NCBI GenBank assembly: GCA_035640355.1
Contig: DASQWI010000007.1
Location: 10,166 to 74,165 of the forward strand
DNA length: 64,000 nucleotides
Reading direction: 5' to 3'
Origin: Actinomycetota bacterium
Lineage (GTDB): Bacteria > Actinomycetota > UBA4738 > HRBIN12
Both the position numbers and the translations under genes were made by a program. Within the stretch, counting starts at the first letter, position 1. Each line of letters opens with the position of its first letter. Under the pieces are notes generated by a model. The model was not told the DNA's origin and ran no database searches. It saw nothing but the letters and a program-made list of their open reading frames with translations. This document shows, one piece after another, positions 12,565 through 29,417 of the stretch.

Positions 12565-13575
12565 ATGGGCGTGAAGATCGGCATCAATGGCTTCGGACGG
12601 ATCGGGCGAAACTTCTTCCGGGCAGCGACGCAACGAGGTTCGGACCTCGACGTCGTCGCCGTCAACGACATCACGGACTCGAAGACCCTCGCGCACTTGC
12701 TGCGATACGACTCCGTCCTCGGGACGTTCGACCGCGACATCGCGGTCTCCGAGAACGGCATCCGCGTCGACGGTGACGAGCTTCGGGTCCTCGCGGAACG
12801 CGATCCGGCGAGCTTGCCGTGGAAGGAGCTCGGAGCGCGCATCGTGATCGAGTCGACCGGCCTGTTCACCGACCGGGAGAAAGCGGACAAGCACATCGCC
12901 GCCGGCGCGGAGAAGGTGATCATCAGCGCGCCGGCCAAGGGCGAGGACATCACCATCGTCCCCGGGGTCAACGACGACAAATACGACCCCGCGGAGCACA
13001 ACGTGATCTCGAACGCATCCTGCACGACGAACTCGGTGGTCCCGATGGCGAAGGTCCTGGACGACGCGTTCGGAATCGAGCGGGGATTCATGACCACGAT
13101 CCACGCGTACACGAACGACCAGAACATCCTCGACCTGCCGCACAAGGACCTTCGTCGCGCGCGCGCCGCGGCGATCAACATCATTCCCACGTCCACCGGC
13201 GCCGCGAAGGCCACCGGCACCGTGATGCCGCACCTCAAGGGCAAGATGGACGGGATCGCCATGCGTGTTCCGGTGCCCGACGGCTCGGTCACCGATCTCG
13301 TCGTCACCCTGAAGCGGGACGTCACGATCGACGAGGTGAACGCGGCGTTCCGGGCCGCGTCGGAGAGCGGTCCGCTGAGCGGCGGGCTCCTCGTGTACAC
13401 GGAGGATCCGATCGTCTCGAGCGACATCGTCGGCACCCCGGCGTCGTGCACGTTCGACGCCGCGTCGACGATGGTCATGGGCAACGTGGCGAAGGTCATC
13501 GGCTGGTACGACAACGAGTGGGGATATTCGAACCGGCTGGTCGATCTGGCGGAGAAGGTCGCCGCGGCGCTGTGA
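12565..13575 (+). CDS. gap: Glyceraldehyde-3-phosphate dehydrogenase, type I
   Basis: [20 protein letters not shown] Rossmann start and catalytic SNASCTTN motif. An AGGAGGA RBS lies 5 nt upstream of the ATG at 12565. The track ORF is extended to 12535. Confidence 0.95.
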
Positions 13576-13585
13576 GCGCGGTGAC

Positions 13586-14788
13586 GTGACGCTTCGAACC
13601 CTCGACGACCTCGGTGACATCGGCGGGCGTCGCGTGTTCGTCCGCGTCGACCACAACGTCCCGCTCGAGGCCGGCGACGTCGCCGACGACGCGCGGGTTC
13701 GAGCGAGCCTGCGTACGCTGACCGAGCTCCTGGACGCGGGAACGTCGCTCGTCGTGGCCTCGCATCTGGGCCGTCCAAAGGGCGAGACACGCGACGAGCT
13801 GCGGACGGCTCCGGTCGCCGACCGTTTGAGCGAGCTGCTCGAGCGCGACGTTCAGGCGCTCGACGAGGTCGTTGGCGATCGGGTCGCGGCGGTATGCGGT
13901 CACGTCGAGCCCGGCGACGTGGTCTACCTGGAGAACCTGCGGTTCGATCCACGCGAGGAGGCGAACGACACCGGCTTCGCCGGGGAGCTCGCCGACCTCG
14001 CCGATGTCTATGTCGACGACGCATTCGGCGCCGTGCATCGCGCGCATGCTTCGGTCGCCGCGCTCGCCGAGCTGTTCGTGAAAGAGGGGAAACCCGCCGT
14101 TGCCGGGCGGCTCCTCCAGGGAGAGGTGGTCGCGCTCTCGCGACTGCTGAACGATCCCGACAGACCGTACGTCGCAGTGCTCGGCGGGGCGAAGGTTTCC
14201 GACAAGCTCGCCACGATCGTCGCGCTCGTCGAGCGTGTCGACGCCATCCTGATCGGCGGTGCGATGGCGTTCACGTTCCTCGCCGCGGACGGCGGAGCCA
14301 TCGGCGACAGCCTCGTGGAAGCGGATAGTTTCGGCGAGGTCCGCGAGGCGCGTGCCCGGGCCGCGGAACGAGGCGTCCTGATCCAGCTGCCGGAGGACGT
14401 CGTCGCGGCGTCCGAAGTCACCGCGGACGCCAGCCGCTCGACCGTCCCCGCCAGCGCGATCCCCCGCGGAATGAGGGGCCTCGACATCGGACCCCGAACC
14501 GTCGAGGAGTTCGCGCGCACGATCGCCGACGCGAGGACGATCCTGTGGAACGGGCCCATGGGGGTGTTCGAGCTCGAGCCCTTCGGCGCAGGGACGCGGG
14601 GGGTCGCCACGGCGGTTGCGGGCGCGAACGCGTACACGGTTGCCGGCGGCGGTGACAGCCTGGCAGCGGTGGCCAAGTACGGGCTCCAGAACGGATTCGA
14701 CCACCTCTCGACCGGCGGTGGGGCGTCGCTCGAGTTCCTCGAGGGCCGTTCGCTGCCGGGGATCGCAGTGCTGGAGAAGGACCGATGA
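13586..14788 (+). CDS. pgk: Phosphoglycerate kinase
   Basis: 400 aa with a typical PGK N-terminus (LDDLGDIGGRRVFVRVDHNVPL) and hinge/C-domain motifs. Confidence 0.95.
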   Translation: MTLRTLDDLGDIGGRRVFVRVDHNVPLEAGDVADDARVRASLRTLTELLDAGTSLVVASHLGRPKGETRDELRTAPVADRLSELLERDVQALDEVVGDRVAAVCGHVEPGDVVYLENLRFDPREEANDTGFAGELADLADVYVDDAFGAVHRAHASVAALAELFVKEGKPAVAGRLLQGEVVALSRLLNDPDRPYVAVLGGAKVSDKLATIVALVERVDAILIGGAMAFTFLAADGGAIGDSLVEADSFGEVREARARAAERGVLIQLPEDVVAASEVTADASRSTVPASAIPRGMRGLDIGPRTVEEFARTIADARTILWNGPMGVFELEPFGAGTRGVATAVAGANAYTVAGGGDSLAAVAKYGLQNGFDHLSTGGGASLEFLEGRSLPGIAVLEKDR

Positions 14789-14807
14789 CCCGTCGCACGA
14801 CCTGACG

Positions 14808-27034: not shown

Positions 27035-28071
27035 TCGACGGCACGCCCCGTGTCTCGTCCGCCGAGCCGCTCATGGAGGTTCGGAACCTGAGGGTTCACT
27101 TCCCGACGGCGGACGGGGTCGTCAAGGCCGTCGACGGGGTGAGCTTCGCCATCGATGCCGGCGAGACGCTGGGCGTGGTCGGTGAGTCGGGCTCCGGGAA
27201 GAGCGTCACGTTCCTCACCGTGATGGGGCTCGTCACGTCGAAGCAGGCACACATCGAAGGCGAGATCCTGTTCCGGGGCCAAGATCTGCTCCGCCTACCC
27301 GACGAGGAGCTCCGTCACTTCCGCGGCAAGCTGATGGGGATGGTGTTCCAGGACGCGATGACGTCGCTTCACCCCTTCTACACGGTCGGGGAGCAGATCG
27401 TGGAGGCCGTCCGCGCGCACGAGAAGGCGTCGAAGAAGGAGGCCTGGGATCGGGCCGTCGACATGCTCAACCTCGTGGGTATTCCCAAGCCCGCCGAACG
27501 CGCACGCCAGTACCCACACGAGTACTCGGGCGGCATGCGGCAGCGCGTGATGATCGCCATGGCCCTCGCCCTGAACCCGGACCTGCTGATCGCGGACGAG
27601 CCGACCACCGCGCTCGACGTGACGGTGCAGGCGCAGATCCTTGAGCTCATCGACCGCCTGAAGCAGGAGTTCCGCATGGCGGTCGTGCTGATCACGCACG
27701 ACCTCGGCGTCGTCGCCGAACACTGCGATGACATCCAGGTCATGTACGCCGGCACGATCGTCGAGGCGGGCCGGACGCGCGACATCTATTACGACGCGCA
27801 CCACCCGTACACGTGGGGCCTGCTGCAGTCGATCCCGCGACTCGACAGCGACGAGGATGAGCCGCTCCACCCCATCAAGGGGCTGCCGCCGTCGCTGATC
27901 TTCGTCCCGTCGGGGTGCCCGTTCCACCCGCGATGCCCGTACGTCATGGACGTCTGCCGGGAGATCGTGCCCCCGCTCCTCCCATCGGACGGGCACCACG
28001 CGTCCGCGTGTCACCTCTCACTCGCGGAGAAGGAACGGATCTTCCGCGAGCAGGTCCTCGAGCGGGCATGA
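27031..28071 (+). CDS. Peptide ABC transporter ATP-binding protein (OppD-like), second system
   Basis: The ATG at 27031 overlaps the permease stop (ATGA). Walker A (GESGSGKS), signature YSGGMRQR, and a Cys-rich C-terminus. The track ORF 26308..28071 is a fused out-of-frame extension. Confidence 0.9.
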
Positions 28072-29156
28072 CGCTCGTCGATCGAACGCCCACGACGTCG
28101 GACGGCAGGCCTCCGCGCACACCGCTCCTTCGGATCGAGAGCGTGAAGAAGCACTTCCCGATCACGAGAGGCGTGATCTTCCAGAAGAAGATCGGGCAGG
28201 TGCACGCGGTCGACGGCGTCGACCTCGACGTCTACCCCGGCGAGACCCTCGGCCTCGTCGGAGAGACCGGCTGTGGCAAGTCGACGCTGGCGAGGCTGAT
28301 CCTCAAGGTCTACGACGTGACCGAGGGGCGGTTGTACTTCGACGGGGACGACTACACGAACTTCGGTCGCCGGCAGATGCGGCCGCTTCGCAGGCAGATC
28401 CAGATGGTGTTCCAGGACCCGTACGCATCGCTGAACCCGCGAAAGACGGTCGGCTCGATCATCGCGGATCCGTTCCGTATCCACGGCTCGGTGCCGAAGG
28501 ACAAGATCAAGTCGAACGTCGAAGAATTGATGGAGCTCGTCGGGCTGAACCCCGAGCACTACAACCGATATCCGCACGAGTTCTCCGGCGGACAGCGTCA
28601 ACGGATCGGCGTCGCGCGTGCCCTCGCCCTCCGACCGAGGCTGATCGTGTGCGACGAGCCCGTCTCGGCACTCGACGTCTCGATCCAGGCCCAGATCATC
28701 AACTTGCTCGAACGCCTCCAGTCGGACTTCGGTCTGACGTACATCTTCATCGCGCACGACCTGTCGGTCGTGAAGCACGTCTCGGACCGGGTCGCCGTGA
28801 TGTACCTGGGGAAGGTCGTTGAGGTCGCCGGCGGTTCGACGCTGTACCGATACCCGAAGCACCCGTATACGGGTGCGCTTCTCTCATCCGTTCCCATCCC
28901 GGACCCGGATCTGTCGGCGCACAAGAAGCGGATCGTGCTCGAGGGCGACGTGCCGAGCCCGATCGACCCGCCGTCGGGCTGCCGCTTCCACCCCAGGTGC
29001 CCGCGGAGCCGGGAAGTGGCTGCCGAAGCCGGGTACGCGGACCAGCCCCACCCACGGTGCCGGGATGAGGAGCCCGCCCTCGCGCCGCACCATCCCGGCC
29101 AGGTCGCGGCGTGCCATTTCCCGCTCGAGGACCGGGCGGAGATCCAGGCGTCTTAA
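28068..29156 (+). CDS. Peptide ABC transporter ATP-binding protein (OppF-like), second system
   Basis: The ATG at 28068 overlaps the upstream stop (ATGA). Walker A (GETGCGKST), signature FSGGQRQR. The track ORF 27915..29156 is extended. Confidence 0.9.
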   Translation: MTLVDRTPTTSDGRPPRTPLLRIESVKKHFPITRGVIFQKKIGQVHAVDGVDLDVYPGETLGLVGETGCGKSTLARLILKVYDVTEGRLYFDGDDYTNFGRRQMRPLRRQIQMVFQDPYASLNPRKTVGSIIADPFRIHGSVPKDKIKSNVEELMELVGLNPEHYNRYPHEFSGGQRQRIGVARALALRPRLIVCDEPVSALDVSIQAQIINLLERLQSDFGLTYIFIAHDLSVVKHVSDRVAVMYLGKVVEVAGGSTLYRYPKHPYTGALLSSVPIPDPDLSAHKKRIVLEGDVPSPIDPPSGCRFHPRCPRSREVAAEAGYADQPHPRCRDEEPALAPHHPGQVAACHFPLEDRAEIQAS

Positions 29157-29192
29157 CGGCGTCTCCCATTCCGGCCGGTAGACTGGGTCGCC

Positions 29193-29417
29193 GTGCTGGA
29201 CGTCGTCGCCCTCGTGCTGAACATCCTGTCGAGCCTGTTCCTCATCGTGTTCATCCTGCTGCACTCGGGGAAGGGGAGCGGGCTGTCGGACATGTTCGGC
29301 GGGTCGTCGAGCCTGTCAGGCGGCACGTCGCTCGAGCGCCGGCTGGACCGGATCACCGTCGCTACTGGTCTGATCTTCGGTCTGAGCACGTTCTGGCTGT
29401 CTTGGCAGTGGAAGTAA
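29193..29417 (+). CDS. secG: Preprotein translocase subunit SecG
   Basis: 74 aa with two TM helices and a Gly/Ser-rich loop (HSGKGSGLSDMFGGSSSLSGG), typical of SecG. GTG start. Confidence 0.85.
   Translation: MLDVVALVLNILSSLFLIVFILLHSGKGSGLSDMFGGSSSLSGGTSLERRLDRITVATGLIFGLSTFWLSWQWK

Follow-up and report, generated by a model that had tools for sequence, protein, structure and literature searches.

In well-studied actinomycetes such as Mycobacterium, Streptomyces, and Corynebacterium, the lower glycolytic genes lie in a chromosomal block with the order uvrC-rapZ-yvcK-whiA-gap-pgk-tpi(-ppc)-secG, and the phosphoglycerate mutase in use is the cofactor-dependent GpmA, which is encoded elsewhere. 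In Bacillus subtilis, the corresponding operon is cggR-gapA-pgk-tpiA-pgm-eno, and its mutase is of the GpmI type (~510 amino acids [aa]). A further family of phosphoglycerate mutases, ApgM, was first described in archaea. Here, a gene block of this kind is described from a 64,000-nucleotide (nt) stretch of DNA, hereafter the window, of an Actinomycetota bacterium (contig DASQWI010000007.1, positions 10,166 to 74,165 of the forward strand), in which an ApgM-type mutase gene, apgM, directly follows gap, pgk, and tpiA, and two oligopeptide/dipeptide-type (Opp/Dpp-type) ATP-binding cassette (ABC) transporter operons separate apgM from secG. Based on comparison with related loci, the block likely represents a set of housekeeping genes inherited vertically in an uncultured soil lineage of Actinomycetota. 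apgM would have been recruited to it once, the stretch from apgM to secG would serve as a variable slot for ABC transporter genes, and a second transporter operon would have been added in the sublineage of the window.

The window shares uvrC, rapZ, gap, pgk, tpi, and secG with the actinomycete block, in the same order and orientation, together with the Pup-proteasome and tatC clusters located further downstream. It differs in the presence of apgM after tpi, in the absence of yvcK and whiA from between rapZ and gap, and in the ABC operons between apgM and secG, so that secG is no longer near tpi. With the B. subtilis-type operon it has in common the contiguous lower-glycolysis genes and a metal-dependent, cofactor-independent mutase directly after tpiA, whereas the mutase here is of the 420-aa ApgM type, and neither eno nor a CggR-like regulator gene is present in the block.

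Gene content of the glycolytic block

All genes of the block lie on the + strand. The glycolytic part begins with gap (12565-13575), which encodes a type I glyceraldehyde-3-phosphate dehydrogenase (Gp_dh_N and Gp_dh_C; TIGR01534 446 bits, cut-off 367) and has a GGAGGA motif a few bases 5' of its ATG at 12565. It is followed by pgk for phosphoglycerate kinase (13586-14788; Pfam PGK, 458 bits), tpiA for triose-phosphate isomerase (14808-15584; Pfam TIM, 301 bits; TIGR00419 above its cut-off), and apgM (15585-16847). The spacers are 10 nt between gap and pgk, 19 nt between pgk and tpiA, and 0 nt between tpiA and apgM, the ATG of apgM at 15585 immediately adjoining the TAG stop codon of tpiA at 15582-15584. 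The original prediction that apgM follows tpiA at once and that four consecutive glycolytic steps are encoded in a row, at spacers of 0-19 nt, is therefore borne out. Judging from this spacing, gap, pgk, tpiA, and apgM would be transcribed together. Because the stop and start codons adjoin, apgM most likely shares an mRNA with tpiA, and its translation would be coupled to that of tpiA.

Upstream of gap lie uvrA (ending at 7562, from the gene annotation of identical public contigs), a gene for a 649-aa cupredoxin-domain protein (7602-9551), uvrC (9647-11530), and rapZ (11527-12486; Pfam RapZ-like_N and PapZ_C; NCBIfam PRK05416, 340 bits), and the 78-nt spacer between rapZ and gap holds neither yvcK nor whiA. 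At the other end, secG (29193-29417; Pfam SecG; TIGR00810 61 bits, above its cut-off of 30.85) starts 36 nt 3' of F2, the last gene of the second ABC system. The interval between apgM and secG is 12,345 nt and the distance from tpiA to secG 13.6 kb, which agrees with the displacement of secG behind two Opp/Dpp-type systems that had been claimed. A tRNA-Leu(GAG) gene (29461-29549; ARAGORN; Rfam RF00005, 52.5 bits) lies 43 nt 3' of secG and forms the conserved right-hand end of the block. The same tRNA gene was found in 36 of the 39 relatives checked, directly 3' of secG in the closer group of relatives defined below and, in the deep group, further downstream of secG, usually beyond a gene for a substrate-binding protein (SBP). 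A listed open reading frame (ORF) at 29520-29909 overlaps this tRNA and is probably not a gene.

A protein identical to ApgM is encoded on contigs of independent soil metagenome assemblies, one from ENA (63.7 kb), one from JGI (1.13 Mb), and four from Logan (2.7-5.1 kb). The downstream genes on these contigs are the same as far as each extends, the Logan contigs reaching at most the start of the first ABC operon. The gene set and its order on the + strand, as first described, are thus confirmed by Pfam, NCBIfam, and the gene calls on the identical public contigs.

Identity of the ApgM-type mutase

The product of apgM scores above the cut-offs of TIGR00306 (370.9 bits against 320), PF10143 (155.7 against 21.5), and PF01676 (94.5 against 24.3), and its 420 aa fit the ~400-aa length and the full-length similarity to solved structures expected of an ApgM-type protein. 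Among solved structures, its best relatives are 3IDD/3KD8 and 2ZKT, each of which bears the deposited name of a cofactor-independent phosphoglycerate mutase; 3IDD aligns over residues 2-411 and 2ZKT over residues 5-418. 1EJJ, which is of the 511-aa GpmI type, matches only at the C-terminal metal site (residues 296-385, 26 bits). D318, H322, D360, H361, and H370 align to D403, H407, D444, H445, and H462 of 1EJJ, which we take to be the metal ligands of that enzyme; judging from family alignments, D10 in the motif LDGLGD is presumably the N-terminal ligand and S57 in the motif PESD the phosphoserine nucleophile. None of these seven residues varies when the protein is aligned with 12 homologues as distant as 44% identity, nor at any covered position among 84 related loci. 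With TIGR00306 above its cut-off and the metal ligands and catalytic serine all present, the proposed ApgM-type mutase identity stands, and the loss of metal ligands that could have overturned it is not observed. On sequence grounds, the most plausible interpretation of the ORF is a functional cofactor-independent mutase. It is predicted to supply the conversion of 3-phosphoglycerate to 2-phosphoglycerate independently of 2,3-BPG, an activity for which the support is the conserved place of the gene after tpiA. No His_Phos_1 or GpmI-type gene was found among the ~50 window genes scanned.

The protein shares with known ApgM-family members the family assignment, full-length alignments of 213-224 bits, the domain pair, and the ligand set, but it differs from them in belonging to a bacterial clade whose nearest outside relatives are also bacterial and in the embedding of its gene in a glycolytic operon. 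A literature search on ApgM in bacteria returned nothing on the present operon or lineage.

The ApgM family is known to include non-mutase members, and the ORF could accordingly be a neofunctionalised protein, such as a PhpG-like phosphonoformyl transferase or a member of the proposed homoserine kinase branch. PhpG, the CMP-5'-phosphonoformate--3-phosphoglycerate phosphonoformyl transferase of phosphinothricin biosynthesis, is represented by the best-scoring NCBIfam model (NF038358), which aligns end to end at 433.8 bits. This score is, however, below the curated cut-off of 545, whereas that of TIGR00306 is above its own, and the homoserine kinase model TIGR02535 reaches 227.3 bits against a cut-off of 446.3. 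The window neighbours are glycolytic and ABC transporter genes, with no phosphonate or threonine biosynthesis genes among those scanned; furthermore, the position after tpi is kept throughout the clade and all mutase ligands are conserved, all of which makes a non-mutase function quite improbable. As a separate point, the higher score of the PhpG model relative to the generic apgM model hints that PhpG perhaps arose from an ApgM close to the kind found in the window.

Relatives and origin of apgM

Relatives were collected by an ApgM-alignment scan of one genome per GTDB species, which gave 80 loci, all from metagenome-assembled genomes (MAGs) or single-cell assemblies and none from a cultured organism. 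About 70 of the 80 bear the label Actinomycetota or Actinomycetes, with ApgM 55-82% identical to that of the window, and the rest are Omnitrophota or unclassified bacteria (52-57%); with metagenome contigs added, the identity range within the actinobacterial clade becomes 55-98%. Outside the clade, ApgM identity is 58% to Dictyoglomota and 52-55% to Omnitrophota, and among archaea it is 49% to Desulfurococcales, 47% to Nitrososphaeria, 41% to Thermoprotei, and 39% to DPANN archaea. In a rough neighbour-joining tree of ApgM, the sampled Actinomycetota form one clade beside Omnitrophota, Dictyoglomota, and uncultured bacteria, with archaea further out. The description of the mutase as archaeal-like is hence apt for the family but not for its nearest outside relatives, which are bacterial (52-58% against 39-49% for archaea). 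These identities and the tree favour a single, old acquisition of ApgM in the lineage, with no sign of a recent archaeal transfer.

A widespread uncultured soil actinobacterial lineage would thus have an ApgM-type mutase within its core glycolytic operon, a case of one enzyme type assuming a role at a conserved operon position. The finding may help in reconstructing the metabolism of these MAGs and provide a synteny marker for their lineage, and it leaves current understanding unchanged.

Synteny around apgM

The window proteins were mapped by tblastn onto all 80 loci. In 62 of the 74 loci with at least 900 nt of upstream sequence, apgM is preceded by tpi at a distance of no more than 150 nt. 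The distance from apgM to tpi or pgk is 270-1800 nt in another five loci, probably owing to frameshifts or an inserted gene, and the seven loci without a tpi match comprise six from Omnitrophota or unclassified bacteria and one Actinomycetota contig (L011) with only ~1.4 kb of upstream sequence.

On the downstream side, the loci are conveniently described as a deep group, with ApgM 55-62% identical, and a closer group, with ApgM 68-84% identical. secG follows apgM directly, after 34-107 nt, in five loci of the deep group, and also in L028 and L040 of the closer group (seven loci in total). The deep group also includes loci with an interval between apgM and secG of 0.5-2.1 kb (a length seen in nine loci), and that of L062 encodes a BlaR1/M56-type peptidase. 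In 25 loci of the closer group, a single operon with the order C-A-B-D-F (A, SBP; B and C, permeases; D and F, ATPases) occupies this interval over 6.16-6.49 kb, and about eight further loci hold variants of one five-gene operon there. The two-operon layout of the window recurs in L089 (ApgM 96%) and L087 (85%), and the contig that carries P0034 (84%; gene table only) and L090 (83%) have a single C-A-B-D-F operon followed by secG. A neighbour-joining tree of gap, pgk, tpi, and apgM together places the window and L087 as sisters, L090 as the next branch, and the other single-operon genomes around them.

These comparisons bear on the original prediction of a local reorganisation, in which a recent rearrangement would have placed apgM after tpiA and two newly arrived transporter operons would have displaced secG. 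In favour of such an event are the position of gap-pgk-tpi near secG in well-studied actinomycetes and the lack of the first operon at this place in relatives whose ApgM is 79-84% identical, but it conflicts with the conservation of the tpi-apgM adjacency and of one ABC operon before secG over dozens of species-level genomes, as well as with the presence of both operons in relatives at 85% and 96% ApgM identity. In addition, at a G+C content of ~67% over the window, there is no marked compositional break beyond a slight GC drop, and no flanking repeats, integrase, or insertion sequence (IS) element were found. A recent local rearrangement is very improbable on this evidence, and the arrangement is instead largely clade-wide, as the 62 of 74 loci with tpi-apgM and the 25 with the C-A-B-D-F operon indicate. 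As for the transporter insertion, the claim holds for the first operon (16985-22812), which is lineage-specific and shared down to 85% ApgM identity, but not for the second, the type of which is resident in the closer group.

Several further observations were made on the genes around the block. yvcK and whiA are absent from the block in the window (12487-12564), and deep relatives keep a gene of the CofD/YvcK family (L062, 6043-6816), with no whiA there. The cupredoxin protein at 7602-9551, in which the domain is C-terminal, keeps its position between uvrA and uvrC in most relatives at an identity of only 26-61%, having diverged far more than the neighbouring genes. In the deep-group loci L060-L071, apgM and secG are separated by a gene for a BlaR1/M56-type peptidase, and secG is followed by one for a family-5 SBP, so that a peptide-binding protein is associated with secG in the deep group also, but on the opposite side. 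Finally, the tRNA-Leu region resembles a hot spot of integration. In L090 (17925-19013), a gene for a phage-type integrase overlaps the tRNA, and the ORFs within 5 kb 3' of the tRNA in the window have no or weak Pfam matches and coincide with a dip in G+C to ~0.65.

The two ABC transporter systems

The first ABC system (16985-22812, + strand) is Dpp-like with the order A-B-C-D-F and consists of A1 (16985-18661), B1 (18751-19674), C1 (19667-20710), D1 (20711-21763), and F1 (21760-22812), identified by SBP_bac_5, BPD_transp_1 with BPD_transp_1_N or OppC_N, and ABC_tran with oligo_HPY. The second (22961-29156, + strand; Pfam) has the unusual order C-A-B-D-F and consists of C2 (22961-24025), A2 (24054-25937), B2 (26069-27034), D2 (27031-28071), and F2 (28068-29156). 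Each system is complete, with a family-5 SBP, permeases with OppC_N and BPD_transp_1_N, and two oligo_HPY ATPases, as is characteristic of the PepT family of Opp/Dpp transporters.

Protein identity between the first and second systems is 25% for A, 38% for B, 39% for C, 52% for D, and 59% for F, and DNA similarity is limited to the ATPase genes, where repeats are 60-78% identical. The two systems had been called paralogous but differently ordered; the difference in order is confirmed by the OppC_N and BPD_transp_1_N domains of the permeases, but the paralogy is only distant. Judged by these identities, the two systems are old paralogues. A five-component architecture that occurs twice in a row, with DNA repeats linking the ATPase genes, might also be produced by a recent tandem duplication or by an assembly artefact. 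The identities of only 25-59%, together with the restriction of DNA similarity to the ATPases, exclude a recent duplication, with which the differing gene order is also at odds, and the agreement of independent assemblies excludes an assembly artefact, so that next to no likelihood is left to either.

The best solved relative of A1 is 6E3D (288 bits, residues 57-541), deposited as periplasmic dipeptide-binding lipoprotein DppA and presumably from Mycobacterium tuberculosis. That of A2 is 2WOK (156 bits), deposited as clavulanic acid biosynthesis oligopeptide binding protein 2, which we take to be from Streptomyces clavuligerus. No NCBIfam equivalog cut-off was reached by either SBP, and binders of nickel, heme, opines, and sugars belong to the family as well. 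From the alignment of A1 and A2 with these two proteins, both systems most likely import peptides. Sugar uptake by Opp-type systems, which would have provided a functional link to glycolysis, was considered and found unsupported, as both SBPs have best solved relatives deposited as peptide binders. The tie of the transporters to glycolysis would accordingly be positional and not functional.

Turnover in the apgM-secG slot

All proteins encoded between apgM and secG were clustered. The D ATPases form one cluster of 35 that includes D2 and a separate cluster of three (D1 and those of L087 and L031), and the F ATPases all fall in a single cluster at 62% identity; D2 and F2 are 66-77% identical to the ATPases adjoining secG in relatives. 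The SBPs, on the other hand, fall into seven clusters at 55% identity (24, 12, 5, 3, and 2 members and two singletons) that are patchy on the species tree, and A2 clusters solely with the SBP of L087, being less than 55% identical to every other SBP of the slot. L013 and L027 have two tandem C-A-B modules, followed in L027 by a single D-F pair; this layout of L027 suggests two importers sharing one ATPase pair. In L018, L019, and L037 the genes are ordered A-B-C-D-F, and identity to the window is 36-37% for the permeases and ~70% for the ATPases. These patterns support a slot with conserved ATPases and with SBP and permease modules that are exchangeable or fast-evolving.

The patchy SBP types, the tandem C-A-B modules, the A-B-C orders, and the Dpp-like replacement in one genome also lead to a more specific reading, which is put forward tentatively as a possibility: the apgM-secG interval may be a cassette-exchange site, in which an orthologous ATPase pair and an upstream motif are retained and SBP/permease modules are swapped, duplicated, or replaced. 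If so, the range of substrates would be diversified module by module at one fixed site of the chromosome, possibly via recombination between conserved ABC ATPase sequences. The transporter slot may in any case serve as a small, well-delimited example of ABC importer module turnover.

The first-type operon is absent from the slot in L090, in the P0034 contig, and in all GTDB relatives but L031, where it stands alone in the slot with identities to the window of 70% (A), 75% (B), 56% (C), 75% (D), and 73% (F). L031 is placed in a different subclade from the window on the concatenated neighbour-joining tree. Because the window and L087 are sisters and L090, with one operon, is the next branch, the first operon is most likely an addition that arose within the window's immediate sublineage. 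Alternatively, the two-operon tandem could be ancestral to the closer group, most lineages having lost the first operon and L031 the second. The tandem C-A-B modules of L013 and L027 demonstrate that there is room for several modules in the slot, and the first-type operon of L031 lies in the same slot at a divergence like that of housekeeping genes; nevertheless, an ancestral tandem is rather unlikely, as the concatenated tree would require many independent losses against two gains or replacements and ~33 loci carry just one five-gene operon of constant size.

Upstream motifs of the resident operon

The spacer between F1 and C2 (22813-22960, 148 nt, + strand) contains the motifs CGTATAT (22871-22877), TTGCTC (22893-22898), and TAGGAT (22917-22922, inside GCTAGGATG at 22915-22923). 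Of 42 spacers that precede C-first operons in relatives, 24 contain CGTATA, where shuffles would give 0.67, and the apgM-C spacers of the closest relatives also carry the TTGnnn...TA(A/G)GAT pair. These motifs thus lie between apgM and C in relatives and, in the window, in the F1-C2 spacer and not in the apgM-A1 spacer (16848-16984, 137 nt, + strand; folding z -0.5; no terminator or promoter callable), which places the first operon downstream of apgM but ahead of the upstream region that belongs to the resident operon. CGTATA and the TTGnnn-TA(A/G)GAT pair probably serve as a promoter or operator.

A repeat search of 16700-29600 returned only the ATPase paralogy, with neither a target-site duplication nor the end of a mobile element near the first operon, and no integrase or IS genes flank this operon. 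An Rfam scan of the whole window gave tRNA only, with no riboswitch or leader. None of the apgM-A1, F1-C2, rapZ-gap, F2-secG, and secG-tRNA spacers folds more stably than shuffles.

Proposed history of the block

Based on the synteny, the trees, and the motifs, a likely history can be proposed for the vertically inherited block, which would run uvrA, cupredoxin-domain gene, uvrC, rapZ, gap, pgk, tpiA, apgM, ABC transporter slot, secG, and tRNA-Leu. In the ancestor of the lineage, an ApgM-family mutase would have been recruited once to the 3' end of gap-pgk-tpi. In deep relatives, the slot between apgM and secG contains either nothing or a single small gene, and in the closer group it contains one Opp-type C-A-B-D-F operon. 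This resident operon has conserved upstream motifs of its own and a conserved ATPase pair, and its SBP and permease modules would have been repeatedly exchanged or have diverged. The sublineage of the window would then have gained an anciently diverged, Dpp-like A-B-C-D-F operon on the 3' side of apgM, ahead of the region upstream of the resident operon, and secG would thereby have been pushed to 12.3 kb from apgM. The second operon would have its own promoter, and secG may be read through from the second operon or from a promoter within F2.

Several results weigh against this history in its parts. The highest NCBIfam score of ApgM is that of the PhpG model described above, although below its cut-off. 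All trees were built by neighbour joining and carry no support values. The divergence of the first-type operon in L031 (56-75%) is similar to that of the housekeeping genes (69-79%), and the choices for the history of the first operon are a gain in the sublineage or an ancestral tandem followed by many losses. A promoter scan of 11000-30500 found no sigma-70-like site, and terminator-like sites in the same range are at chance level (7 found, 7.1 expected from shuffles); as no promoter or terminator calls are usable, the operon boundaries rest on spacing.

Hairpins after the SBP genes

A hairpin with a 16-bp perfect inner stem lies after A1 (18683-18727, + strand; minimum free energy -45.7 kcal/mol, z = -6.3, 0 of 200 shuffles as stable), and one with a 13-bp perfect inner stem lies after A2 (25951-25992, + strand; z = -2.0 for the 146-nt spacer). 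In each of the 40 SBP-to-permease spacers examined (window and L007-L090), the SBP gene is followed by a stable hairpin whose stem runs over 10-19 consecutive bp, and the median z is -3.7 against mononucleotide shuffles. An intercistronic stem-loop is a known device for raising SBP expression relative to the membrane components, and by analogy these hairpins fit such a device.

Other gene clusters in the window

The region 47046-63867 is a typical actinobacterial cluster, which comprises a proteasome ATPase gene (mpa/arc type), a Pup_ligase-family gene (presumably dop), pup (50466-50669, its product ending in GGE), two ORFs at the positions expected of prcB and prcA, and a second Pup_ligase-family gene (presumably pafA). 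It also contains a DUF3866 gene (- strand), a PafC-HTH/WYL regulator gene, tatC, a gene for a DSHCT-domain DEAD-box helicase (helY-like), and a diacylglycerol-kinase-like gene. The region 39110-45024 contains an amidohydrolase gene, two tandem genes for GCV_T-family aminomethyltransferases, and a methylenetetrahydrofolate reductase gene, and may be a demethylation or one-carbon cluster.

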